38,786 bases of DNA from a virus, in IMG/VR virus record IMGVR_UViG_3300045988_157946; one strand, 5' to 3'. Of the stretch, positions 1,644 to 14,823 are shown in pieces. The position numbers and the translations under genes were made by a program. A model generated the notes under the pieces. The model searched no databases. It was given only the letters and a program-made list of their open reading frames with translations, and was not told the origin of the DNA. Position 1 is the stretch's first letter; every line of letters starts with the position of its first letter.

Positions 1644-2507
1644 TTATTTCAAATACGTTTTTGCAACATAATATGTAGCGCTGCCGTATTTGACTTTAGA
1701 CATTGTATATTTCTTGCCTTTGATTTTTTTAGTGCCGGCTGAAGCTCTTACAAGTTCAACCTTTGTATTGTTAGGAATAAGCGTGTGAGCTTCTTTGTCG
1801 CCGAGTGCCTTATAAGCATTCAAGCCGCCGTTTGCCTTGACCGTCTTGTAAACCTTAGCTTCTTTAAGATTTTTTTGATTTTTCGGTCGAAGAATACCGT
1901 TTACTGTTGATGAATTATAAGTTTTCTCTCTGAGTGTCATTTTATCGCCGTTCCCGGTTGCATTTTGGTCGTAATACTTAACCTTGCCGTTCTTAGTAGG
2001 CTCGGCAATAACAAAAATATGGCCGTATGTACCTGATGTTCTGATTCCGATATCACCCTTTTTGAGTTCGCCGTTTTTGTATGTAGGTGTAATAAAAACA
2101 AAATTCTTTTTGAGCCACGCAGATGATTTACGATTAGTCCACCAATATTTTGCATTGCCCCAAAAGCCTTTATCAAGTCCAAGGCATTCGTGGATATAGC
2201 AGTCAATTAAATCCACGCACTGCACACCGTAAACACCGTCATAGTTTGTTTTCTTGCCGAGGAATTTTTTAACCCAAGCAGAAAACTTCATACCGTTTGA
2301 GCCGCCTTTCTGCTCAATGTTCATAACAGCGGACAAGCCTGCTGCTACCGCCGAGGCAAGAACACCGAGAAGTGCCGCCTTAAGTGCGGACTTATCCTGT
2401 GTAAAATCAACCGTCGGCAAAGCGACTACAAGAAAAGCAATAAGTGCCTGAATGAATGTTTTTGCAACTCTGATGAGTGCTTCTTTGGTTAATGTGTAAT
2501 TTTTCAT
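1644..2507 (-). CDS. Endolysin with an N-terminal two-TM holin-like domain, a CHAP domain and a C-terminal SH3b-like wall-binding domain
   Basis: Two hydrophobic helices (FIQALIAFLVVALP and ALLGVLASAVAAGLSAV). CHAP Cys in GVQCVDLI and His in GHIFVIAE. The C-terminus KVYKTVKANGGLNAYK..KKYTMSKVKYG..YYVAKTYL is SH3-like. Confidence 0.8.
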   Translation of the reverse strand: MKNYTLTKEALIRVAKTFIQALIAFLVVALPTVDFTQDKSALKAALLGVLASAVAAGLSAVMNIEQKGGSNGMKFSAWVKKFLGKKTNYDGVYGVQCVDLIDCYIHECLGLDKGFWGNAKYWWTNRKSSAWLKKNFVFITPTYKNGELKKGDIGIRTSGTYGHIFVIAEPTKNGKVKYYDQNATGNGDKMTLREKTYNSSTVNGILRPKNQKNLKEAKVYKTVKANGGLNAYKALGDKEAHTLIPNNTKVELVRASAGTKKIKGKKYTMSKVKYGSATYYVAKTYLK

Positions 2508-3086: not shown

Positions 3087-4116
3087 TTGCTGCCACTCTC
3101 CTTTTCGCCCATATGCGTATTCTCGTTCCGGGATTAAATACCGAAGTGTCAACATCAAAATAAATCCCAATTGTATCATCAACCGCTTGAAAAGCCTGCA
3201 TCGCTCCGTATCTAATTGCTTTTTGGCTGCTCTTTACTCCCACATAACTGTAGTTCACAATTACATCTTCGTTCATTTTCTGTGCGTGAATAACAGCAAG
3301 AACGTGTGATGACAATTTATCAACATATATGTTATGTGCGCCCCAAAGTATTGAGCGTAGAAAACCACTTGTAGAATGGTTTATCTGTATAAAATCATCG
3401 TTGGTAATTTCTATATGCACTTCAACTGCGTTTTTTATTTCATATTCGATTTTATTTACTTCCTCTTGCACCGTAGTATCTACTGCCAACTCCCACTTTT
3501 CGGATGAGCCTTGCGGTCCTTGTATTCCTGTGTCACCCTTTGGTCCTTGTTCGCCCTGCGGTCCTGTGTCACCTTTTGGTCCTTGTTCACCCTGCGGTCC
3601 TGTGTCACCTTTTTCGCCTTTAAGTTCGCCGTTCGCAAGCTTTGTTTCAAGCATTTCGGATATATCATTAGCTCGCTTAGTAGCCTCTTGTGATTTAACC
3701 GTTTCACTCGCAAGCGCCGAATAATCAGACATTGAGGTTATCCTATTTTCGTCGGTGAGCACGTCATACACCTCTATATTAAATCTCGGTGTAGTTAAAA
3801 GCTGAGCGCCTGCTGCATTTGAATCGTATATCCTCAATTCACACTCAACAGTACCTGCTGCCGTAATAAGCTGCTTTTCGACGTCAACAATAGCCATTCC
3901 GTTTTCAATAGCGCAATCCTTATATATCACATTACCGTCAGTCTTTTTGCCATATATTGTAGCAATCATATCACCGCCAAGTATAAAGGCTTTTCCGCCG
4001 TCGGTAAGGGATATAACTATCCTTCTTGAATTAACATCATTTAGCTTAACGTCTATGCTCCATTGTGCACCGCTTTTTTGCAAATCAAGAGATTTTCGAT
4101 AAACTTGTTTTTCCAT
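3079..4116 (-). CDS. Tail fibre / receptor-binding protein: BppU-N-like domain, collagen-like Gly-X-Y stalk and C-terminal head domain
   Basis: The N-terminal pattern [41 protein letters not shown] matches my recollection of the BppU N-terminal domain. The stalk is [37 protein letters not shown]. Confidence 0.75.
3527..3613. repeat. 36-bp tandem repeat (about 2.4 copies) encoding collagen-like [12 protein letters not shown] units
   Basis: Units at 3527..3562 and 3563..3598 differ at about 2 positions. A partial third unit follows. Confidence 0.85.
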
Positions 4117-4135
4117 ATAATCACCTCTTGAAATA

Positions 4136-4170
4136 ATTATACAAAAAGAACGAGGGTGTTTGTCACACCC
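4136..4170 (-). promoter_or_regulatory. Late-promoter candidate 3 (upstream of the tail fibre gene): GGGTGTGACA-N19-TATAAT
   Basis: On the - strand GGGTGTGACA is the reverse complement of 4161..4170 and TATAAT is the reverse complement of 4136..4141, exactly 19 nt apart. The same architecture occurs at 23343..23377 and 27683..27717. Confidence 0.55.
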
Positions 4171-4173
4171 TCG
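4141..4173 (-). terminator. Rho-independent terminator after the giant ORF, overlapping the late-promoter motif
   Basis: CGAGGGTGT-GACAA-ACACCCTCG forms a 9-bp stem and is followed by TTCTTTTTGT on the - strand. Confidence 0.65.
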
Positions 4174-4180
4174 CCGTTAA

Positions 4181-7100
4181 TTATTTGAGCCAATATTTAT
4201 TTATATAATTAATAACATCCGTTCTATTACCATACAATCCTGTTTTCGTCATTATAGTAATTATCTTAGCTTTTTCATCAGCATTACCGTTAATGAATTT
4301 CGCTTTATATTGATTGGCAATAGAAGTTCTGATACCAAAAACGGCATTATCCTGCGTCATACCGTTAGCAACTTTAGCCTTAATTCTGTTATCAACATAA
4401 TTACGAATGTTCTTGGTATCGTTTGACTTAAACGCTTCAACCATTGCCTCGGTATTATAAGACGACGCTTCCCAATTTGTAAAATCCTCATCATCAAAAT
4501 AGCCTGTTGATTCAAGTTTAGTTTTAATTTGACTGCGTTTTGAATTATCCGCAGCTAAATATTCTTCCTTAAAAGCACTCTTTAATGATGATTTTATGCT
4601 TCTTTCGGCCTCTGTCTTTGTCTTGCCGTTGCTTATATCGGTTGCAATATTGCCGTCAATAACAGTTTTCAAAACCGATTTATCACCGCTGTTTAAAGCG
4701 TTTATCAAGTCAGTTTTGTTATAAAGCTTACTGTCTTTGCTATCCTGTTCCTCGTCAATCTCGACCATATCAATTGCTTTTTTGACAGTTTCCTTATCCG
4801 TTCCGCTTGATATAAGCGTTTCAAGCGATTGCTTATATTTTTTGTCGTCGCTGTCCGCCTTATATCCTGCTGCCTTTTGAATTTCGGAAGAATAGGCTTT
4901 AATTGCTTTATAGGCAATCTCGTAGTCAAAGCCGTCGCTTTCAAGCTCTTTAGCGGTATTAATTGCCGTGCCAATATCTCCGTCAAGATATGCAAGGCCT
5001 GCTGTAGCAACTCGCTCGTCATTTTCTATCAATCCCTTCTTGATATAATTATCGGGATTAGAAACATTATCGGCAATGCGCTTATACATGTCCTTGTTGC
5101 CGTCCTTAATTGCCTCATATATCATTTGTTGCTTGTCTTTTTCAGGAAATAGGTCAAGGCCAAATACAGCAAGCACATCATCAGTAAGTAAAGCCTCTTT
5201 AATTTCCGATTGTGTAGCTTCTTTTGCCATTGAAGGATTGAAACTGTTTCCATTCTTTGCACCTTTGATAACATTTTCCACGCTGTTAATATCACGAATT
5301 ACGTTTTTTATCGGCAAGCCGAAAAATGCGCCAATCGAGCCGGCAAGACTTTCAATTTTTTGTGTATAGGTAAGATTGTCACTATTCAGATTGTGAATTG
5401 AATTATACAAATCACTAAACACCGACATATCTGCCCTTGTCACATCATAGCCTTGGAATACAGATATAGCGTCTTTAAGAAAGGCTATTTGATTAACAGG
5501 GTTAGCATTGTCAATAAAATTAGGAATAAGCTCAGCAATATATTTTTCAGCATACGTTTTATCGTCATCATCATTACGTGCGGCGGTTACAATTGATTGA
5601 AGAAGAGCGTTTATAACACTTGCAATAACAAGTGAAGCAACAATTCTCGTGGCCTTTTTCTTGCTAAACTTTCCACGTTTTGCCTGAACGGTTGCATTGA
5701 AAAGCATATTAAGTGAAGTAGTCGGCTCTGCCATAAATGCAGTTGCCATTTTAACGGCGCCGTTTTTACTCCTCATTAAAGCCGAACGTGAAAATACCGA
5801 ATCATATACCTGTGTTTTTGTTATAACCTCAGTAAATCGTTCGCCGGCCTTTTGCAAACTTTCCTCTGTTGATAAATCAGGATATTTATCCTTGGTTTCC
5901 GCCTTGCAGGCATTCCAAATGTGAGACCAGGTTATTTCGTCAGCCTTTGAAGCCACATATCCAAATACCTCATCACGAAACGCTCCGTCCTTAAAAAATG
6001 CCGCAATCTTTTCCTTACCCTTATAATCAATATTATTAAGATAATCAATCGTACTTTGCGCCATGTTAGTATCAAAATATCCCATTTCCTTAATAATAGC
6101 AACAGGAGCATATTTCTTTATTTCCTCATAACTGCGCTTCGTAAATGTAGTTTTTGCGAAATATTTGGTATCAATGATTGATAACGCTCTGCCTATTGCC
6201 GACGGCTGCTGAATTGCAACGGAAGCGGAAGCAAAAACAGCATTTTTCTTGAACATACTTGTAAGTTTATCAACAATATCCGAGCCTGCTTCATGCACGA
6301 CACCGCCGTTAAGGTCCTCAAGCAAATCGCTTATATATCCTGTTGCCTTCTTACCGTATGCATTTTCCACTAAAGTTCTGATAGAACTAAACTCGTCGCC
6401 GTTGCTCGAATGATAATTATAAACCCGGTCGAAATTTTCAAGCGGTAAAGCAAAGGCATTATAGCTTGCCATTTCATCAACGTGGCTCGCCCATACGTTG
6501 TCAAATTCTTCAAGTAAAAGCGGATTTTTTGCTTTTTCAACAATCGCATTAGTAAAGCCTGAATTAATGATTTTTTTAGCGCCAATAGTTTCCATACTGC
6601 TTCTGTGCATGTAGTTTTTAGCGGTACGTGCAGGATAATAATTTTCTTCCTTAAAAAGTTCAACGTCATATAGCCGTCTTGATATCTCGTTGCCCTTTTC
6701 CGCCATATCGGTTGAAAGATATTTAACCATGTCACGAACATAATTCCTTTGTTCGTCGCTTAGCATTGACCTGATTTTTGATATATCCGAATAACTGAGC
6801 CTGTGAGTTAAACTGTCATTCCACTTTGAGCTTTTATCCTTAAGCGTTTGAATAGCACTTTTAGGCTTATCAGTCACTACAATACCGCCATGGATAATAT
6901 GATTAAGCGTTTGCTTTCGATTGCTCATTGCATATATCGCCATTATCTGTTCAAGGTTTAAATTAAGCTTGTCGCCTAATGAAGTTGTTATATCATAACG
7001 TTTCTTCCTATCCCAGCTTTTCCAATCGTATTTTTCTCTGACATCATCAGCGTAATTTTTGCTGTTGTCTATCGTAACCGCCCATGTGTCCTCACCTTTT

Positions 7101-10100
7101 CTGACATCACGGTAAAGTTTAAGCAACTCATCACTGCCAAGATATTCAAAAAAGTATTCCGGTTTCATAGAGCCGTATTTAATTGAATCAATAATACCCT
7201 TGTCTATCTTATACTTTGCATTTACTTGTTTAAGTTCTTCCTCAACCTTAGAAACACTCTGTTCGATAGTTTTATTTCTTTCGGAATAGAATATCTTATT
7301 AACATTATTGCACACTTGAACAGTTGTGCGCACAAGGTCATCCACCATTTTAAGCTCGTCAAGTGTCAATTGATTAGCATTCCTGTCACCAATCATTGTT
7401 TGCAACTGTTCAATATAGTTTTTGATATATCCGTTATATGCTTCGGTCACCTTTTCGTAATCGTCATTATTATTCAGCGATTTAAAACTGCGGTCGAGTG
7501 CATAAAGCTTTGAATATATTTTATCATCAAGCTTAGTACCAAATGATATAACATTTACTATTCCTTTGACTGCTTCGACAATATTATTAGGAATATGATT
7601 TTTCTTATCCTGCTTTGCAAGCTGTGCAAGTCTAATTGTGCTTTTTTGAAAGCTCTTATAAAGCAGACTGCGCTCACGCTTTTCTTTCTGCTTTTGCCTA
7701 TATTCAGCCTTATACTCAACTGTATCTCTATATAAGTTCGACCTATAATCTTGATTTTTCTTTATCTGCTCTTTGCGAAATTCAGAAAATTCCTTTTTAT
7801 GCTTTGCTTTTTCGTCAGCAAGCAGCTTTTGATAGTTGCTTATTTGCTGAGCATATTTCGACCTTGCTTTTAAAAAGCGCTTTTCGTTTTTATCCGCCTT
7901 GGTCTCATAAAGATTAGTCTTGAAATAATAAGAAAGAATATCATTAGCAAGGCTTTCGAGATATTCTTCCTTGCTGTAGCCGTAATCGTTTTCAATAATC
8001 TTATTTTTATAAGTATTAACCATATCAAGAAGCGCAATCGGCATATCCTGCGAATTGTCACTTGGCATTAATCCGCCAAATAATTCTTCCATTTCATTAG
8101 CCAAATCGTCAAGCGGTATACCATTTTCGGTAATGTTAATCTTTCCTCTTGCCGCATTCTTATACTTGCCGTAAGAGCCGAAATAATACGAAACCTCTTC
8201 CTTTTGCTTATCGGATAGCTTAATTTCTGTGTTCTTCAAATAATCAAGCATTTCCTGTTCTTCCTGCGTAGGCTGATACTTAATCTGCTTTTCGTTTTCA
8301 ACAAGCTTTTGTGCAAGGTCGTATGCAGCGTTAAAGAATTGCTGAGAAGTGTCGAGCGTGTGCCAGCTTTTCATTTCCTTAGCCACGTCAACGCCTGTCA
8401 TACGTGTAGGTGTAAGCTTAATGATTTTTCTTGCCGCAATTAATAACGAGTTCGTACTTACTTCCCTGCCGTTAGTAAGCTCAAATTGGTGCTTTAAGAC
8501 CTCATTGATTTCCTTAAGGTGCTTGTTTTCACGCTTAAGCTCTGCATACTCGGAATAGTCTACGTCTCGGGAGTATCTTTTTTTGCTTGTGTTATCATTA
8601 TCAGCATTTTTCCGATATCCGAATCCGTCACTTTGCCTTTCTGCTTGAAGCGTTTTTCTATTGAATGAATCAATATTTCCTGTTGTTCTTCCGTTTCTAT
8701 TGCTGCTAAGGCTTCTGCTATTGTATCTTTCGGAAGTTTCAAGTAATCCAGATAGTCTATTATCGTTTTTTGCTTTTCCGTGAACTCCATAATCATCCAA
8801 TCCCTTCAAATAATCTTCAATATTATATCTGCTGTAATATGTAATACCATTTTCATTGTATACAAAACGATATTTATAATCACCATAATTTATACTTCTT
8901 AACTCGTTAGAATATTTGTTTGCATATCTTGTTGTAATTGCACTTGATACAACAGCATATTCTTTTTTTCCAAGTCTGATTTCATTATAATCCGTATCAT
9001 CAAACTCGTCAATATTAACATCACGAGAAAATCTAACATCTTCAATTGAATTAACAACATCAAGTCGGCTCTGCTCGTTATTTGCTTTATATTCTGCATA
9101 CGAAACGCCTGCATTTTTTAATGCATTTTTCAACTTTTGACTTGCATTGTCAGGAATAACAGCAGTATATACTTCGTTAAAATAAACGGCTCTTTGCGGT
9201 TTTGCTTCAAAATAACTCGTTGGCAATGCACGAATATCATTAACGAGGGTCCAAATATCATCAACCGCCATATCACTGTAATTAGCCCAGCCTTTAAGCT
9301 CGGTTTTCAAATAATTTGCAAGCCCTGATTTTGTTTCTGTTTTTGCAACGCCGTCAACGATAATATCAGCCACAGCAAATGGGTTATCGTTTTTTGTCAT
9401 ACTTTGGGCAATTTCTTGAAATCTTTTATAAAGATTATTACGTATTTGATTGTATTCTTCATCATTAACATTTTGAAGTCGTGATTTATCATTTCTCACT
9501 TCATCAAGATTGTTATATTTCTTCGCTGAGCCACCGATTATATTGCTGACGAGAAAATTGCCACCCTGAGCATTTTGATTATTCATTGCCTTAACGATAT
9601 TTTCAAGGTTATAATCCCAATACAGACTTTCCCAATTCTTTCGATTACCGGATTCGGTAAAAGGGTCATTGCCTTTCCAAATACCCTTTTTCTCTACAAC
9701 GCCGTCAAATAAATCATTAAGCCAGCTTTCATATTCCTTTTGATTAATTTTATTATCAATAAGATTATGTGTTGCCTCATCATCTGAAACGAGTTCAACT
9801 TTTTCAGCTCCGTTTTTCAAATAATCGATAGCCTTTTTCACAAAAGCTTTTCTTTGAAACGCCGTCTTAATTTCATCCGAATTGTTGAAAATGTTATCTA
9901 TGTTCTCATCACTTATACCGGGAATTAAGGATTTATAGTAATCGGCGATTGATTGTTTTATCTTGCTATCGTATCTTTCAACCCATAATTTGCTCGGAAG
10001 CAACGGTTTGTTCTCAATTTCCTGAAGCGTATCTTTTATATTATCATTAAGAAAATCGAAAACGTCAGTATCTTCGCTTGTAAGAGTTGTTTTCTTTTCT

Positions 10101-13100
10101 CTTTGAACAATATCTCTAACCGGCTCAGACTTGTCTGCCAAATATAGCTCCTTTAAAGCATAATCATTTTTATACTTATTAACTAATTCGGCAATACTTC
10201 CTGCGCTGTCAACTTGGTCTTTGAAATTATCAGGCTGAAATAATGAAGCATTAGGCTTATATGCAAGTTTTTGCTTTACAAGATTGTTTATTTTGCTATA
10301 TAAATCCCATGCTTTCTTTTCATTAAGTTTGTGTTCGGCTTTAACTGATATCGGAGTATAAGCGTCAGAAGAATAAACCTTATTTGCATTACTTTCTTGT
10401 GGGTCAATAGTCTTTTTATCAAAAACAAGTGATATATCACCAAACTCATTATTTGCGCTGATATTTTGTGCTTTCATTATTGCTATCGACGGACTTGGTA
10501 AACCACCGAGTTCTAATGCACTGAGCAGTTTACTTTCGGTAGTATTATGAATTGCAACAAGTTCCTTTGCTTCCTCAATAGGTATATCAAGTGAAAATTT
10601 TGTTTCATTATTATTGACATTTGAAGAATTATTTGCTATATTATCTATGCGAGACAAGTCGTAACTATTATAACCTCTGGATTCTTTATCCTTTGCGTTC
10701 AGTGAGACTGTCTCGTTTTTATTTTGCAAATTCATATTATGAATATAAAACTTATTTTCAACAGGCGTTTTCTTTATTTTTATTTCAACATTATAATTTT
10801 CGCCGTCAACTATAGCAGGATGATTAAGTACCAAAAACGAACTACCCTCTTTTGAGTGGTAGTTTTTTTCATTTTCATTAACCACCTCTGCATATCTAAT
10901 CATATCTGGTAAGCTGTCAATAACAGCTATTTTTGCAGTTTTTATTTTACGTGGCAATGAAAAATATCGCTTTTCTGTAGATAATGTTTCTCTGATCCCG
11001 TTTTTAGTTATTGAAACAACAATATCCGTATCTGCATTTACAACAATATTTTTATTGTTTTGATTGAAAAAGTTATCGTTATCAAGAGTTGATATAACTC
11101 TTTTTTGAATATACACAAAATCATTAAGCGCATTTGCTGTATTTGATATGCCGAACTTTTCTAATTTCTCGTTAGAATTAATATCAACATCAGCAAATTT
11201 ACCTAGTGTCACGGAATTTTTAGTGTTTTCCTCAACCTCGGTACCGTTATAAAGATTATTGCTTGCATTATCGAGCATATCGAGAAACTGCTTGCGAATA
11301 TGGTCGGCTCTCTTTTGCTCCATTTCCATAGCGTTCCTTGCAGCCGTCTGCAAATTAGAAGTAGCAATCACACTTTTAATTTTTTCAATAACAGACTTAA
11401 GGAAATCTGCGATTGTTTCAATAATGCTTTTCTTTTCAGCTTCGGTTTTGTTGTCACTAAGCCACTTTGCAAACTGCTCAACGCCCTCATCCGTAGAAAA
11501 GAGACCCGATACAGCGTCGTTGGTAAGCTCGTCTATTGCCTCTGCTCTTGTTTTTGACCCCTCAGCCTTAGTATATGTATCGATATAAGCGTCAACAAGA
11601 GAGTTAAAATTATCTGCGCCCTTGTAGCTGACATACCAATCACGAATAGCGGCCTGCACGTTTTTGTATTCCTGCTCATTATAAGCAAGCCCAAACTCGC
11701 CAAGTTCGTGAATAAGTGCATTATACTCACCGCTACCGTCTGCATTAATGATAATTTTAGCAAGCGACGGAATAAACTGACCGTTTCCGCCCTGTCTGCC
11801 GTCGGAGTGTCTTTCAATATCCACTCTTGTTTTCCTTGCAACCTCGGTAAAGACATCATCAATCGTACTGTCACTGTCAGAAATATTCTTGTATTCACCT
11901 TCAATATGCCTTGTGGCTTTTGTAGGTGATTTTTTATTTTTTCTCTGCTCCTCAATATAAGCGTCATAGCTTTTAGCGTCTGTTTGTCCCGAACGGTAAA
12001 TATTAATCGCTTTGTCGCCGAGGAATTTAACGGCAGGATAAAAAGCCGGGTTTCTCATAACGAATTCATTAAACGGCACATCAGGCTTTGCAACGCCCAA
12101 ATCATAAAGCATTTTTGCCTGAGATACATACGTACTTACACTTGCGCCCTTTAAATTATTCGGGTCAAAATTGACATAAACGGCATTTGCCCCGGAGTTA
12201 CCGAAGTTTTTATTTATAATTTCATTTGTCAGGACCTGCTGCGTTTGATTTTTGAACGAAATATTGTTGTAATCAATGTCGCCGGCTGAGGTTTTAACCT
12301 TGAAATTACTGCGGTCGGCGCTGACCTCAAATGGGTGCTTGCCATAGATTTTTACCGCCGCTTGATTTCCGTCTGCCGTAATAGCAACAGCATTAACATT
12401 ATATTTAAGGTCGTTGCTCTGTTGTTCTGCTGTGAACGTTTCTGCAGGCTTTTGCGTATATTCCGATACGTTTGTTGTGTTTTCCTCTAAAGCGGCATTT
12501 TGAGCATTTTCTGCCCTGGGCTGATACTTGCTGTAGCCGCCATAAGTAAAGCTATAATCTGTATAGCCGTTCTTAAGCTTAGCCGACAATGCTTCAAGCG
12601 AATCGTTGCTGATATCTTTTTCAGTAAAGTCTGAGCCGAACTGTTCATTTATGGCATTAATAGCTTTTTCACTATCCTTAATCACCTTGACATCATATCG
12701 GCTCAATTCAAAGCCATTAACCATTTTGCTTATGGCCTTATTTATTCTGTCCTCGTTTTTTTCGCCCTCAATTGCCGTGGCAATGTTTTCCTTGAAGCCC
12801 TCTTTCACTATCTCTGTTTGAAGCTGTCCGAGCCTTTTTTCATTAATCTTACTGTAATCAGCTTCATCATAAATAGAAGCGCCGGCAAGTACATCACCGT
12901 TTGCTTGACTTGTCTTAACCTTTGCCTGCAATTCCTCGGCATACTTATATGCCTTACTGTTTTTATTCTTTGAAAGCCCCTCGTCTATAATCGCCTGAAT
13001 ATCGCTGTTGCTTTGTGCTTTTGCTTCTGCGCCGAGCTTTTTATTATCGATATTATTTTGTGTGCTTTCAATAATCTTGTTCGGTGCAATTTCGCTACCT

Positions 13101-14812
13101 GACATAACAGCGCCGGCAAAGCCTGCCTGCAAGGCGGCGAAGATATCCTCGGCAAGCATAGACTTAACAACCTCTTTGTCTGCCTCTTGTTCACTCAAAC
13201 CTTGTTCAAGATAGCTTCTTTTAAGCTGCGAAAGCTCGCTTAATTGTCCCTGTGTAATTTGGTCGTACGTTCTGTCAACAACATTACCGATAATTTCCTC
13301 TGTGCCCTCATTAAGTCCACTCACAAGAATTTTACCGAATGTGCTGTTTCCCTTGACGTCCGCCCATTCAAGCGGAGCGCCAACCATTTCCGTAAGGAAG
13401 TTAATTAATGCGCTTTTCACGCTGCTTTTAATCGTTTCACCCGAAGAACTTCCGCTTGCAAGCTGTGAAGACATATCATCGCCCATAGCCGCCGTACTGA
13501 ATACGCCGTTAATAAGTGCTTGTTTTGCCTTTTCTGCCTTACCCGAAGCGGTAATACCGCCTGTTATTCCGCCGCCAAAAAGTAATGAATTGTAAACATT
13601 CTCTGCCATTTGGTCTATGTTATCATATAGCGCCGCATTAACATTACCCATATTGTTGCCGAGAATTTCAATTTCGTTATTCTTATTGACGCTTATAGGG
13701 CCTATTTTTTTGCCGGCAAGATTGATAAGTCCGTCATTTGCTGCCTTATCTTCAAGTCCTTTTCGTGTGCCGTACGCTGCATTCGTAATAAAGTCCGCCG
13801 TGCCGTTAATACTGCTTTTACCGTTCACCGCCATATCAATGGTATTTGCTATATTCGCCTGCGCTCTTAAAGGGGAAGTAAGCGTTCTTGCTGCCTGCAT
13901 TATAACCGGGTGCTCCTGTGCCGCTTTTTCAGCGCCTTTTATAACCTTTGCCTGCTGCTCATTGTTTTTATTAGCAACATAATAATCAATCAAGTCCTCT
14001 GCCTTGATATCCTTATATCCTTTCTTGTTAATAAGGCTTTGAAGTTCTTTGAGTGAATCATTATATTTTTTGCTATAGTCAACGTCATTTTGACCCTTTG
14101 AGCCTACACCCATAGCATTAAGCATAGCACTGCTCATATCATCAGCGCCCGAAGCCTTGCTTTTCTCGGCAATTGCATTTCTATATCTGTATGCCTGCTC
14201 TGCTTTTTTTGATATTTCATTATCTTTGCTTAAAGCGTTCTTGTTTTTAGCTGCCGTTTCTTCTCTTGCTTTTTGCTTAATGTCAGCGTCGTATGCCTGT
14301 TGCTCATAAGCCTCTTGCTTAGATTTATTATAAATCTGCTTGACTTCATTTTTCCGCTCAGCGTCATACGGATTTCCGTACAAAGTCTCGCCGACTTTGC
14401 CTATTTCACTCATAAGTAAATTTTTCTTTTGCTTACTGCCGTTTAATGTCTCATACTCCTCCTTAAGCTTATCGTATGCACTCTGCTTTTTCTCTTTTTC
14501 CTTTTGAGCAGATTTATAGTTTTTCTTTGCCTCGGAAGCGGAAATACCGTCGGCAGGATTAATTATATTTAATATAGCCTTAAGCTGGCTTTTCCTCTCG
14601 TCATTAATTCCTTTCTTTTGCTCGTTTTTATAGGCCTTAGTGTTTTTAATATAATCATCATAATAAAGCTTATACGTATTTGCAGATACATTGCTGCGGT
14701 TATTCTTTGCGCCCTCATACATAGAACGAGAGTATTCGTATGCGTCCTTTTTCTGCTTTTCTTCATCACGCTTTTTAGCTTTTTTTCTTAATGTATCAAA
14801 ATCAATTGCCAT
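4181..14812 (-). CDS. Giant (3,543 aa) modular virion-associated protein; candidate internal/ejection 'polyvalent' protein
   Basis: The ORF is uninterrupted. The likely start is the ATG at 14812, with a GAGG core 5 nt upstream (the track begins 2 codons earlier at a GTG). It sits between internal-protein-like genes and the tail fibre. It has Gly-rich hydrophobic segments, an LIHELGEF segment (11693..11710) and multiple distinct sequence modules. Confidence 0.7.
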   Translation of the reverse strand: MAIDFDTLRKKAKKRDEEKQKKDAYEYSRSMYEGAKNNRSNVSANTYKLYYDDYIKNTKAYKNEQKKGINDERKSQLKAILNIINPADGISASEAKKNYKSAQKEKEKKQSAYDKLKEEYETLNGSKQKKNLLMSEIGKVGETLYGNPYDAERKNEVKQIYNKSKQEAYEQQAYDADIKQKAREETAAKNKNALSKDNEISKKAEQAYRYRNAIAEKSKASGADDMSSAMLNAMGVGSKGQNDVDYSKKYNDSLKELQSLINKKGYKDIKAEDLIDYYVANKNNEQQAKVIKGAEKAAQEHPVIMQAARTLTSPLRAQANIANTIDMAVNGKSSINGTADFITNAAYGTRKGLEDKAANDGLINLAGKKIGPISVNKNNEIEILGNNMGNVNAALYDNIDQMAENVYNSLLFGGGITGGITASGKAEKAKQALINGVFSTAAMGDDMSSQLASGSSSGETIKSSVKSALINFLTEMVGAPLEWADVKGNSTFGKILVSGLNEGTEEIIGNVVDRTYDQITQGQLSELSQLKRSYLEQGLSEQEADKEVVKSMLAEDIFAALQAGFAGAVMSGSEIAPNKIIESTQNNIDNKKLGAEAKAQSNSDIQAIIDEGLSKNKNSKAYKYAEELQAKVKTSQANGDVLAGASIYDEADYSKINEKRLGQLQTEIVKEGFKENIATAIEGEKNEDRINKAISKMVNGFELSRYDVKVIKDSEKAINAINEQFGSDFTEKDISNDSLEALSAKLKNGYTDYSFTYGGYSKYQPRAENAQNAALEENTTNVSEYTQKPAETFTAEQQSNDLKYNVNAVAITADGNQAAVKIYGKHPFEVSADRSNFKVKTSAGDIDYNNISFKNQTQQVLTNEIINKNFGNSGANAVYVNFDPNNLKGASVSTYVSQAKMLYDLGVAKPDVPFNEFVMRNPAFYPAVKFLGDKAINIYRSGQTDAKSYDAYIEEQRKNKKSPTKATRHIEGEYKNISDSDSTIDDVFTEVARKTRVDIERHSDGRQGGNGQFIPSLAKIIINADGSGEYNALIHELGEFGLAYNEQEYKNVQAAIRDWYVSYKGADNFNSLVDAYIDTYTKAEGSKTRAEAIDELTNDAVSGLFSTDEGVEQFAKWLSDNKTEAEKKSIIETIADFLKSVIEKIKSVIATSNLQTAARNAMEMEQKRADHIRKQFLDMLDNASNNLYNGTEVEENTKNSVTLGKFADVDINSNEKLEKFGISNTANALNDFVYIQKRVISTLDNDNFFNQNNKNIVVNADTDIVVSITKNGIRETLSTEKRYFSLPRKIKTAKIAVIDSLPDMIRYAEVVNENEKNYHSKEGSSFLVLNHPAIVDGENYNVEIKIKKTPVENKFYIHNMNLQNKNETVSLNAKDKESRGYNSYDLSRIDNIANNSSNVNNNETKFSLDIPIEEAKELVAIHNTTESKLLSALELGGLPSPSIAIMKAQNISANNEFGDISLVFDKKTIDPQESNANKVYSSDAYTPISVKAEHKLNEKKAWDLYSKINNLVKQKLAYKPNASLFQPDNFKDQVDSAGSIAELVNKYKNDYALKELYLADKSEPVRDIVQREKKTTLTSEDTDVFDFLNDNIKDTLQEIENKPLLPSKLWVERYDSKIKQSIADYYKSLIPGISDENIDNIFNNSDEIKTAFQRKAFVKKAIDYLKNGAEKVELVSDDEATHNLIDNKINQKEYESWLNDLFDGVVEKKGIWKGNDPFTESGNRKNWESLYWDYNLENIVKAMNNQNAQGGNFLVSNIIGGSAKKYNNLDEVRNDKSRLQNVNDEEYNQIRNNLYKRFQEIAQSMTKNDNPFAVADIIVDGVAKTETKSGLANYLKTELKGWANYSDMAVDDIWTLVNDIRALPTSYFEAKPQRAVYFNEVYTAVIPDNASQKLKNALKNAGVSYAEYKANNEQSRLDVVNSIEDVRFSRDVNIDEFDDTDYNEIRLGKKEYAVVSSAITTRYANKYSNELRSINYGDYKYRFVYNENGITYYSRYNIEDYLKGLDDYGVHGKAKNDNRLSGLLETSERYNSRSLSSNRNGRTTGNIDSFNRKTLQAERQSDGFGYRKNADNDNTSKKRYSRDVDYSEYAELKRENKHLKEINEVLKHQFELTNGREVSTNSLLIAARKIIKLTPTRMTGVDVAKEMKSWHTLDTSQQFFNAAYDLAQKLVENEKQIKYQPTQEEQEMLDYLKNTEIKLSDKQKEEVSYYFGSYGKYKNAARGKINITENGIPLDDLANEMEELFGGLMPSDNSQDMPIALLDMVNTYKNKIIENDYGYSKEEYLESLANDILSYYFKTNLYETKADKNEKRFLKARSKYAQQISNYQKLLADEKAKHKKEFSEFRKEQIKKNQDYRSNLYRDTVEYKAEYRQKQKEKRERSLLYKSFQKSTIRLAQLAKQDKKNHIPNNIVEAVKGIVNVISFGTKLDDKIYSKLYALDRSFKSLNNNDDYEKVTEAYNGYIKNYIEQLQTMIGDRNANQLTLDELKMVDDLVRTTVQVCNNVNKIFYSERNKTIEQSVSKVEEELKQVNAKYKIDKGIIDSIKYGSMKPEYFFEYLGSDELLKLYRDVRKGEDTWAVTIDNSKNYADDVREKYDWKSWDRKKRYDITTSLGDKLNLNLEQIMAIYAMSNRKQTLNHIIHGGIVVTDKPKSAIQTLKDKSSKWNDSLTHRLSYSDISKIRSMLSDEQRNYVRDMVKYLSTDMAEKGNEISRRLYDVELFKEENYYPARTAKNYMHRSSMETIGAKKIINSGFTNAIVEKAKNPLLLEEFDNVWASHVDEMASYNAFALPLENFDRVYNYHSSNGDEFSSIRTLVENAYGKKATGYISDLLEDLNGGVVHEAGSDIVDKLTSMFKKNAVFASASVAIQQPSAIGRALSIIDTKYFAKTTFTKRSYEEIKKYAPVAIIKEMGYFDTNMAQSTIDYLNNIDYKGKEKIAAFFKDGAFRDEVFGYVASKADEITWSHIWNACKAETKDKYPDLSTEESLQKAGERFTEVITKTQVYDSVFSRSALMRSKNGAVKMATAFMAEPTTSLNMLFNATVQAKRGKFSKKKATRIVASLVIASVINALLQSIVTAARNDDDDKTYAEKYIAELIPNFIDNANPVNQIAFLKDAISVFQGYDVTRADMSVFSDLYNSIHNLNSDNLTYTQKIESLAGSIGAFFGLPIKNVIRDINSVENVIKGAKNGNSFNPSMAKEATQSEIKEALLTDDVLAVFGLDLFPEKDKQQMIYEAIKDGNKDMYKRIADNVSNPDNYIKKGLIENDERVATAGLAYLDGDIGTAINTAKELESDGFDYEIAYKAIKAYSSEIQKAAGYKADSDDKKYKQSLETLISSGTDKETVKKAIDMVEIDEEQDSKDSKLYNKTDLINALNSGDKSVLKTVIDGNIATDISNGKTKTEAERSIKSSLKSAFKEEYLAADNSKRSQIKTKLESTGYFDDEDFTNWEASSYNTEAMVEAFKSNDTKNIRNYVDNRIKAKVANGMTQDNAVFGIRTSIANQYKAKFINGNADEKAKIITIMTKTGLYGNRTDVINYINKYWLK
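8560..8796 (-). CDS. Possible nested 78-codon ORF in the +1 frame of the giant gene
   Basis: It reads as a balanced helical protein (EFTEKQKTIIDYLDYLKLPKDTIAEALAAIETEEQQEILIHSIEKRF..). AAGGGA lies 4-5 nt upstream of its ATG. The host frame here is an S/R/N-rich low-complexity linker. Confidence 0.3.
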   Translation of the reverse strand: MIMEFTEKQKTIIDYLDYLKLPKDTIAEALAAIETEEQQEILIHSIEKRFKQKGKVTDSDIGKMLIMITQAKKDTPET

Positions 14813-14823
14813 AATCACACCTC

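Follow-up and report, generated by a model that had tools for sequence, protein, structure and literature searches.

The locus described here raises the question of whether a short open reading frame (ORF), lying wholly inside a giant phage gene on the same strand but in another frame, is a gene in its own right, and what its product might do. The window (the entire 38,786-nucleotide stretch of viral DNA that was analysed) carries on its minus strand, in the ORF list, a 3545-codon gene (4181..14818) for a giant polyvalent or internal-virion-type protein. The nested ORF, 78 codons followed by a TAG stop, occupies positions 8560..8796 of the same strand, in the +1 frame of the giant gene. Based on the comparative data presented below, we take it to be a genuine coding gene that is dual-coded in the giant gene and whose product would most likely be the cognate partner of an adjacent domain, termed X, of the giant protein; the probability of this explanation as a whole is put at ca. 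0.8.

The phage is podovirus-like, and its host is a gut bacterium similar to Eubacterium sp. CAG:251. The giant protein contains a Pfam LPD3 domain (aa 1251-1358, E = 1.5e-15) and a PBECR5 RNase-like effector domain (aa 1405-1676, E = 1e-89; 9791..10606, minus strand), and an ART-PolyVal domain is found in its relatives. In being very large and multidomain, with LPD and conflict effector domains, the gene conforms to what is understood as polyvalent. It is flanked by a gene for an internal virion protein (phrog_511), from which it is separated by two ORFs without PHROG matches, and by a tail fibre gene; judging from this synteny, the giant protein is probably packaged in the virion and ejected with the DNA. 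The endolysin of the window is encoded by a separate gene (1644..2507). Unbroken homologues of the giant gene, 3495-3851 codons long, are present in L015-L017, L020, L024, and L034-L036, and a blastn comparison of the region with phage and plasmid collections gave no match.

Start signals of the nested reading frame

A sequence-only reading of the window had drawn attention to the ORF. Both the ORF and its translation match the DNA sequence, save that the peptide quoted in that reading lacked the last four residues, TPET. The giant gene had been said to contain eight same-strand alternative-frame ORFs of at least 60 codons, seven of them junk. The count proved to be exact, and in L015, a diverged relative, the other seven ORFs carry two to six stops each (mapped roughly, with boundary stops counted). 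The length of the nested ORF is by itself not unusual; it is conservation that sets it apart from the others. The ORF is intact in 87 of the 89 copies surveyed.

As judged from the DNA sequence, the ORF has translation start signals of its own. The AAGGGA element noted 4-5 nt upstream of the ATG is indeed present as a Shine-Dalgarno-like sequence (8801..8806, minus strand) 4 nt before the first ATG (8796), and the in-frame stop noted three codons upstream is a TGA (8806..8808, minus strand). The conserved start is the second ATG (8790..8788), since L016 lacks the first one and all members of the family align from the second; translation from this codon, 10 nt downstream of AAGGGA, would yield a 76-aa product. 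In type A and in most of the type B lineages, an A(A/G)GGA element precedes the conserved ATG by 8-10 nt, although the flanks are otherwise diverged. In most lineages, there is also a small-frame stop 1-3 codons ahead of this ATG; the stop directly precedes an ATA-ATG in most type B copies and lies 14 codons upstream in L019. The small protein would thus be translated independently of the giant one, from the internal Shine-Dalgarno-like element and the conserved ATG.

Selection on the two overlapping frames

The nested ORF forms, together with the region coding for the X domain, a variable cassette (8555..9031, minus strand). When the window was compared with its relative L009, differences in the upstream half of the cassette were distributed 9/6/18 over giant-frame codon positions 1/2/3, i.e., substitutions in the X domain sit on giant-frame third positions. 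Over the nested ORF, 20 differences were found, distributed 3/3/14 over small-frame positions (binomial P = 9e-4). Purifying selection therefore changes to the small frame exactly over the nested ORF. In 18 informative sequence pairs, the small-frame dN/dS was 0.08-0.17, while the giant-frame dN/dS over the same ORF was 0.5-2.4, with dS in such comparisons reaching up to 1.4.

The giant frame is, at the same time, actively kept open across the nested ORF. Resampling of the synonymous codons of the small ORF, carried out for 13 copies, led to an expectation of six to eight giant-frame stops on average; none was observed (P(open) at most 4e-4 in each of the 13 copies). The third frame contains 10-21 stops over the same stretch. 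Low small-frame dN/dS, combined with a giant frame that is open against the resampling expectation, indicates that both frames are maintained.

The giant-frame segment that overlaps the nested ORF (8558..8797, minus strand) is a basic, S/R/N/G-rich, stop-free linker without constraint on its sequence. It had been described from the sequence as linker-like and S/R/N-rich, and this is borne out by its composition (70% S/R/N/G/D/T/K), pI of 10.2, and GRAVY of -1.58. A single-sequence AF2 model of the giant-frame segment, weak evidence at a model pLDDT of 42, presents the linker as coil with pLDDT below 50. The 76-aa product of the small frame, on the other hand, had been described from the sequence as balanced and helical, and is predicted by AF2 to form four helices (pLDDT 89, pTM 0.75); its pI is 5.1, and 32% of its residues are hydrophobic. 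The constrained, folded frame is that of the small gene, and the unconstrained frame is that of the giant gene. The same bases would carry the giant ORF onward as a basic low-complexity linker, with selection for openness and none for linker sequence.

In stand-alone copies of type C, the -1 frame is still open (P = 0.001-0.06). Continuity of the giant gene gives no explanation for this, and the basic peptide of the -1 frame might itself be a functional partner. No relatives of type C were found in scans of viral and JGI metagenome contigs.

An optional cassette and its small-protein family

The cassette is delimited by two motifs of the giant frame, RFSRDV (aa 1930) and RYSRDVDY (aa 2082-2088). 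Within it, the nested ORF is directly preceded by the X domain, a beta-rich module of ~75 aa encoded in the giant frame (8798..9019, minus strand), which belongs to no known family: searches of Pfam, PADLOC, and NCBIfam gave no significant match. In 50-aa bins, the giant proteins of the window and L017 are ~82-100% identical outside the cassette, mostly 96-100%, but only 21-25% identical over aa 1951-2050 and 60% identical over aa 2051-2100. The X domain and the small protein switch sequence type together, and in the distant relatives L021 and L022 the small ORF likewise follows an X-homologous domain. The conserved downstream flank was used to retrieve nine giants: five have the cassette, three have a replacement, and in one (L070) it is precisely absent. 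The small gene accompanies X in all five giants that have it and has no detectable homologue in the four that lack it; a 64-codon +1 ORF in the alternative cassette of L069 is not a detectable homologue either (5.5 bits). X and the small gene thus make up a single cassette, optional and hypervariable, with [FY]SRDV motifs at its borders. Since the two lie side by side, their co-variation could also be a matter of linkage only.

PBECR5, the module encoded upstream of the cassette, does not co-vary with the small protein, since it is identical in phages whose cassette types differ. The cassette is also found after ART domains. On these two grounds, the possibility that the small protein provides specific immunity to the upstream PBECR5 RNase was discarded.

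A nested homologue is found in the same +1 frame in 19 of the 19 related giant genes that have one (27-92% amino acid identity across the family), and the nesting holds across alleles only 44-48% identical to that of the window. Alleles that are 27-45% identical retain length, start, and helix pattern. A homologue search, which had been proposed as a check, was productive: the family comprises at least 155 database clusters (E at most 1e-3), nearly all of 72-95 aa and aligned from the same Met, and none of the homologues is in frame in a large protein. Every family member has the conserved ATG, stand-alone genes included; the latter consist of the ORF with a few flanking codons and are located among ordinary genes of unrelated phage contigs (L029-L032). 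The family is undescribed. The small protein has no match above threshold in Pfam, PHROGs, NCBIfam, or PADLOC, and a Foldseek search of the PDB returned nothing below E = 1. When its model was compared with BFVD, a single uncharacterised 64-aa viral protein was retrieved (TM 0.72/0.83, E = 0.08); no homologue with a known function was found by profile and structure searches.

The small gene is missed by gene callers because of its location inside the giant gene, and is annotated as a separate gene in chromosomal copies where the giant frame is truncated. Such orphans cluster in islands beside phage attachment sites, with up to four different alleles adjoining prophage junctions. The islands contain X-side remnants, copies of the small gene, and repeats of conserved linker DNA, and homology of orphan loci starts and stops at the [FY]SRDV motifs. 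ARAGORN identified a real tRNA-Ser beside the islands; the tRNA-like appearance of another conserved linker was not confirmed by the same program. Prophage L038 adjoins orphan alleles that are 84-92% identical to its own. About three independent disruption events are seen in the giant frame of orphans and about two in the small frame, which is too few for orphans to be used as evidence of host selection. Recombination between conserved flanks could likewise leave arrays of this kind behind as a by-product.

A candidate internal promoter is present near the upstream end of the cassette, where TTGACG-17-TATAAT (8984..9012, minus strand) matches the sigma-70 consensus at 11 of 12 positions. The match is 222 nt upstream of the conserved ATG, inside the stretch coding for IDEFDDTDYN, and TATAAT, TATACT, or TACAAT occupies the same position in every type A or type B cassette with an X domain. 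The total number of sigma-70-like matches over the promoter region was not above the shuffle expectation. The small gene may have its own promoter at the cassette start. In orphan L013, neither a convincing same-strand promoter upstream of the small ORF nor a terminator was found.

Three explanations for the ORF had been offered at the outset, and of these, independent expression of an overprinted gene is supported by the switch of selection between frames, the conserved ATG and Shine-Dalgarno-like signals, the 155-cluster family, and nesting in 19 of 19 genes. That a former in-frame domain has been displaced by two compensating indels or by sequencing errors would agree with the alternative frame being the more protein-like one, but 19 giant genes, from independent assemblies and with very diverged alleles, share the frame relation, the upstream stop, the ATG, and the terminal stop, and the giant frame is stop-free against expectation. 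No large protein was found to contain the domain in frame; three candidates from a HMMER search (P0003, P0004, and P0007) turned out on inspection to be repeat-driven partial matches. We therefore reject this explanation as having next to no chance of being correct. Programmed +1 frameshifting, which would produce a truncated fusion protein, is rejected as well and considered extremely improbable. A Shine-Dalgarno-like element stimulates +1 slippage in prfB, and the one located just upstream of the nested ORF could in principle do the same; however, the small-frame stop close before the conserved ATG in most lineages (14 codons ahead of it in L019) leaves little or no room for a frameshift, the site lacks a conserved slippery motif as well as any stop or rare codon in the giant frame, and the ATG is kept even in stand-alone genes. 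The conserved ATG, A(A/G)GGA, and close upstream stop together argue against frameshifting and compensating indels alike.

Two further explanations dispense with a small protein or with a single giant gene. Conservation could act at the nucleotide level, on a recombination site or RNA structure, with the ORF being passive. The flanks of the cassette are recombination hot spots, and the linker DNA repeated in chromosomal islands would fit such a view. The three-base periodicity of substitutions in the small frame and a dN/dS of ~0.1 at dS up to 1.4 are, however, a protein-level signature, and alleles of 27-45% identity share length, start, and helix pattern. A search of Rfam at the gathering threshold returned nothing over the region, and the one linker fold tested (giant nt 4060-4232) was not significant (z = -1.6). 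The odds of a purely nucleotide-level cause are accordingly very small. It is hardly more credible that the giant ORF is in fact two large genes flanking the small one, with the giant frame open by chance. Separate annotation of the small ORF in chromosomal copies with a truncated giant frame is what such an arrangement would produce, but the chance of an open frame is at most 4e-4 per lineage, the frame is open in 19 of 19 giant genes, and the giant-frame motif RYSRDVDYxEY runs across the stop codon of the small ORF.

Possible function and relation to known systems

With dual coding taken as the preferred reading, a role for the small protein can be proposed. The product of the nested gene would most likely be a cognate binding partner of the X domain, and could neutralise X in the producing cell as an inhibitor or immunity-like factor. 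Alternatively, small protein made from prophage or orphan copies could act against a superinfecting phage with the same cassette type by neutralising its giant protein on entry. Any such exclusion must be allele-specific, given that L038 resides next to orphans 84-92% identical to its own allele. The cassette would be exchanged, gained, and lost by recombination at the flanking [FY]SRDV motifs. This functional part of the explanation, i.e., partnership with X and an inhibitor or exclusion role, is tentative, and we hold it at somewhat less than even odds. A fuller version, in which the cassette is an effector-immunity or exclusion-specificity pair within an ejected phage protein, X acts in the newly infected cell, the 76-aa protein is its allele-specific neutraliser, orphans serve as an anti-phage repertoire, and phages escape by swapping cassettes at [FY]SRDV, is speculative and more doubtful. 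If it is true, overprinting on a linker would let an internal module carry its own antidote with the giant ORF unbroken, and the orphan alleles beside att sites would be an immunity repertoire assembled by bacteria and resident prophages.

The small protein could instead be an assembly or packaging chaperone that is made from the same late mRNA and binds the emerging X domain, with no part in immunity or exclusion. The position of the small gene right after X on the same transcript, the small, acidic, and helical nature of its product, and the joint change of type in X and the small protein are all compatible with a chaperone. Such a role leaves unexplained why phages that are nearly identical elsewhere are hypervariable in the cassette, why other phages carry stand-alone copies, and why chromosomal islands hold several alleles, and the cassette is missing from four of nine closely related giants; we consider a chaperone role rather unlikely.

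The arrangement can be compared with several known systems. In lambdoid phages, the spanin gene Rz1 is wholly embedded in the +1 frame of Rz, and the two products bind each other; the embedding of Rz1 in Rz was reportedly described by Summer et al. in 2007. Similarly, a short phage gene with start signals of its own is here wholly contained, in the +1 frame, within a longer gene, both frames are kept, and binding between the products, X and the small protein, is what we infer. Unlike Rz1, the small protein looks cytoplasmic, acidic, and helical, and carries neither a lipoprotein signal nor a Cys lipobox; neither an N-terminal hydrophobic segment nor a conserved Cys, features of an o-spanin, was found in it. 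Unlike Rz, the host gene is no lysis gene but codes for a 3545-codon polyvalent protein, and, in a further difference from the Rz/Rz1 pair, the embedded frame is constrained while the host frame is an unconstrained linker. The locus clearly exemplifies long-term dual coding in tailed phages, beyond the classic examples.

In polymorphic toxin-immunity cassettes, CdiA-CT/CdiI follow a VENN motif; Rhs-CT/RhsI pairs are another case, and orphan arrays are known. The locus resembles these systems in having a variable module delimited by a short conserved motif, here [FY]SRDV, a small candidate partner gene that travels along, alleles swapped between otherwise identical loci, and orphan partner arrays with toxin-side remnants in chromosomes. 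The likeness is one of cassette layout, X being a putative module without a toxin-family match. In contrast to toxin-immunity cassettes, the module is internal and not C-terminal, which is why the partner gene overprints a linker and does not come after a stop codon, and delivery would be by phage ejection, not by a secretion system. If the partner or immunity reading is true, polymorphic toxin-immunity logic would extend to virion-delivered phage proteins, and a concrete and testable explanation would be at hand for the arrays of fragments next to attachment sites of prophages in a bacterium common in the human gut.

Polyvalent proteins of phages and conjugative elements have been described by Iyer et al. 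(2017, PMC5512222). Like them, the giant protein has LPD3 and PBECR5, with ART-PolyVal in relatives, and is a mosaic whose modules are gained and lost. Neither X nor the small protein matches LPD or other Pfam models, and a term search of that article for overlapping genes, for frameshifts, and for immunity proteins gave no result; it appears that no polyvalent-protein gene with a second gene embedded in it has been described before. Polyvalent proteins, which are large and poorly understood conflict proteins, can evidently carry embedded second genes and exchangeable two-part cassettes. A protein family hidden by standard gene calling is revealed at the same time: its 155 clusters are unannotated "orphans" because members of the family enter databases only where the giant gene around them is disrupted or truncated.

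As in viral overprinting reviewed by Pavesi (2021, PMC8227390), one of the two frames is ordered and constrained, and the other is disordered, biased in composition, and fast-evolving. In the usual case, the short embedded ORF is the young and disordered one. Here, in contrast, the embedded ORF is folded, conserved, and also found as a stand-alone gene, and it is the frame of the long gene that looks like the secondary reading. This direction of overprinting, in which a long gene crosses a folded small gene as a disordered linker, is unusual and bears on the origin of both fusion genes and overlaps.

A dual-coding gene within the giant gene

The giant ORF (3545 codons; 4181..14818, minus strand) encodes a protein with Pfam LPD3 and PBECR5 domains, and is therefore assigned to the polyvalent proteins, a category of Iyer et al. 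2017 (PMC5512222). It lies in a podovirus-like phage genome with the gene order large terminase, portal, major head protein, 1104-aa internal virion protein, two unknown genes, giant gene, tail fibre, and endolysin. Since the giant gene of a Eubacterium sp. CAG:251 prophage (L024) is almost identical to this one at its ends, a host of this type is suggested.

The small ORF (78 aa; 8560..8796, minus strand) is in frame +1 within the giant ORF. Its translation agreed with that quoted in the sequence-only reading, which lacked the last four residues, TPET. The AAGGGA element (8806..8801, 4 nt from the ATG) and an in-frame TGA three codons upstream of the ATG were confirmed. Over the same nucleotides the giant frame is linker-like, as proposed (70% S/R/N/G/D/T/K, pI 10.2); the small protein has a pI of 5.1 and normal hydrophobic content. 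Eight alternative-frame ORFs of 60 codons or more do exist on this strand, as counted before; rough mapping placed 2-6 stops in each of the other seven in L015, a diverged relative. The longest (144 codons, frame +1; 11533..11967, minus strand) corresponds to an open stretch of 173 codons between stops in relatives L016, L017, and L020, and contains four stops in L015; its sequence resembles frame-shift junk.

Homologues 92% or 44-48% identical to the small protein were found in frame +1 of the giant ORF in six viral contigs, whose four complete giant ORFs span 3510-3743 codons. We surveyed 89 small-ORF copies in 63 sequences. All 19 copies enclosed by an open frame of 1000 codons or more were in +1, with no giant-frame stop in the overlap; among 70 orphan or short copies, 52 had no such stop and 18 had one. 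The third frame always contained 10-21 stops, and small-ORF length was 71-79 codons in 87 of the 89 copies. Even in very distant family members from organisms of ~50% GC (L021, L022), a homologue of the X domain, the giant-frame segment just before the small ORF, is present, and the overlapping frame is open and R/N/G/S-rich.

Comparison of the window with the related locus L009 revealed differences mostly at giant-frame third positions in the upstream half of the cassette formed by X and the small ORF (9/6/18), while the 20 differences over the small ORF were distributed 3/3/14 on small-frame positions (P = 9e-4). For 18 informative sequence pairs, Nei-Gojobori dN/dS was 0.08-0.17 in the small frame versus 0.5-2.4 in the giant frame. 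When synonymous codons for the small protein were redrawn by the giant gene's codon usage (5000 trials, 13 copies), the resampled ORFs had 6-8 giant-frame stops on average, and the giant frame was open in ≤0.04% of trials for each copy. Thus, given the low small-frame dN/dS and a giant frame that is open against the resampling expectation, both frames are maintained, the small one for its sequence and the giant one for continuity only. We put the probability that the small ORF is a dual-coding gene at about 0.8 to 0.85.

Three possible explanations of the small frame had been offered: an independently expressed overprinted gene, a former in-frame domain displaced by compensating indels or sequencing errors, or a product of programmed frameshifting. 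The same arrangement, start and stop included, turns up in dozens of independent assemblies, which disposes of indels and errors. It is the second ATG (8790) that is conserved as the start, the first being absent from L016. A(A/G)GGA is found 8-10 nt upstream of it in type A (the window's class) and most type B lineages, despite differing flanks, and a small-frame stop lies 1-3 codons upstream of the start in most lineages, immediately preceding ATA-ATG in most type B copies. These start signals and the upstream stop exclude frameshifting as the route into the small frame, and internal initiation would fit. The overprinted gene is favored by the conserved start signals, the existence of a family, and small-frame selection, its expression being predicted from sequence. 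A near-consensus σ70-like match, TTGACG-17-TATAAT (9012..8984, minus strand), lies inside the coding motif IDEFDDTDYN at the cassette start; the hexamers occupy a constant position, 222-225 nt upstream, in all X-bearing cassettes of types A and B, and in distant relatives TGnTATAAT is found at this place. We treat this candidate internal promoter as a lead, not as evidence.

The small-protein family and its stand-alone copies

A word-indexed search revealed one close relative, P0001 (92% identical, 76 aa), which gene calling lists as a separate gene on 17 contigs, and an exhaustive HMMER search added five full-length small proteins of 36-44% identity. Three large-protein HMMER matches, considered as in-frame homologues, were repeat artefacts on inspection. 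Profile searching produced 155 clusters at E ≤ 1e-3, nearly all of 72-95 aa and some occurring on hundreds of contigs, none with a Pfam domain or informative name. A 38-sequence alignment (27-91% identity) begins at one conserved Met and yielded a confident four-helix AlphaFold2 model (pLDDT 89, pTM 0.75) with no informative structural neighbours. Searches of Pfam, PHROGs, PDB sequences, PADLOC, and NCBIfam matched nothing to the family, which is undescribed. Two alleles are chimeric. In P0015, a 155-aa product, the small ORF continues in frame into downstream sequence also found in the linkers of chromosomal islands, and the allele at locus L038 (10007-10237) joins a type A small protein to a C-terminal tail of type B; recombination therefore occurs inside the small ORF too.

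In other phages the small gene follows replication genes (L029/L030) or adjoins HNH and terminase genes (L031/L032). Homology there is confined to the small ORF and a few flanking codons, showing that the unit is able to work as an independent gene. In type C stand-alone copies (L029 10001-10234; L031 10001-10240), set in unrelated phage contexts through which no giant gene runs, the −1 frame is open or nearly open across the whole ORF (P = 0.001-0.06), perhaps reflecting either recent capture or a function of that frame.

Most of the small genes called "stand-alone" are relics within bacterial chromosomes. In one island a tRNA-Ser(GGA) gene is situated directly upstream of the orphans (L004 7497-7800; L023 4121-4213); the tRNA terminator and the ~60 nt that follow it have a duplicate 126 nt beyond, in what looks like a putative att-site scar. 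A second island is located between Mn-catalase and glycosyltransferase genes (L011-14, L025-28). In some strains (L011, L026, L038) an intact prophage abuts the island, its endolysin gene adjacent. Islands contain one to four different alleles, decayed giant-frame pieces, and repeated linker DNA, and their homology to the window's giant gene stops within about 24 nt past the small ORF's stop. The arrays resemble orphan immunity clusters; just as well, recombination of prophage cassette flanks with the islands could have left them as by-products. Independent disruption events in orphan copies are few, and allow either outcome on host selection for the small ORF.

An exchangeable cassette

The giant proteins of the window and L017 are about 82-100% identical per 50-aa bin (mostly 96-100%), but identity falls to 21-25% across aa 1951-2050 and to 60% across aa 2051-2100. 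This divergent part corresponds to the interval from RFSRDV to RYSRDVDY, which contains the ~75-aa beta-rich X domain and the small gene that overlaps the giant frame. Types (A, B, B') switch jointly in X and the small protein; the upstream PBECR5 domain does not vary with them. Among nine giants retrieved through the conserved downstream flank, independently of the cassette, X and the small gene were present in five, another module in two, and a different 165-aa cassette in one (L069); in the last (L070), an ART domain is joined directly to RLSRDVDYAEY. Present in five of nine giants and replaced or missing in the others, the cassette is therefore optional, and the motifs are the sites of its gain, loss, and exchange.

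These motifs, [KR][FY]S[RL]D[VI], occur at giant aa 1408, 1930, and 2082 (window ~10595, 9031, and 8575, minus strand) and mark module boundaries, modules being joined, deleted, or swapped exactly there, as in L070; they could be recombination junctions, protease sites, or both. The alternative cassette of L069 (~2790-2990) occupies the same giant-gene position and has a 64-codon +1 ORF of its own, which terminates at the shared TAG within RDVDY. Homology of this ORF to the small-protein family was undetectable (5.5 bits), which makes it a possible second type of embedded gene. Further blocks of the giant protein (aa 2351-2850, 3101-3200, and 3351-3545) are 26-60% identical to some relatives and are flanked by blocks of 96-100%, a mosaic that points to frequent recombination throughout the giant gene. 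The linker before the PBECR5 domain (10587..10759, minus strand; giant nt 4060-4232) encodes NETVSLNAKDKxSRGxNSxDLSRxDNIANN..NNNETKFSLD and is repeated several times in chromosomal islands (L004 7900-9700), in some cases without an intervening module; a hairpin predicted in it was not significant (z = −1.6).

Possible role and comparison with known systems

The embedded gene is conserved and dual-coding, has its own start signals, and sits in an optional, hypervariable cassette. Any role for its product is tentative, and the one we propose is somewhat doubtful. The small protein would bind the X domain, most economically as an allele-specific inhibitor, which might protect the producing cell itself or, expressed from a prophage or from orphans, might exclude superinfecting phage. 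A packaging chaperone is possible, but fits cassette optionality and hypervariability less well than an inhibitor.

A term search of the polyvalent-protein paper (PMC5512222) returned no mention of overlapping genes, frameshifts, or immunity proteins. The closest logical analogue of X and the small gene is a polymorphic toxin-immunity cassette, and the closest architectural analogue of the embedded ORF is Rz1 inside Rz, both taken as analogies. Embedded overlapping phage genes are a known kind, to which this gene belongs; it is represented here by an undescribed protein family.
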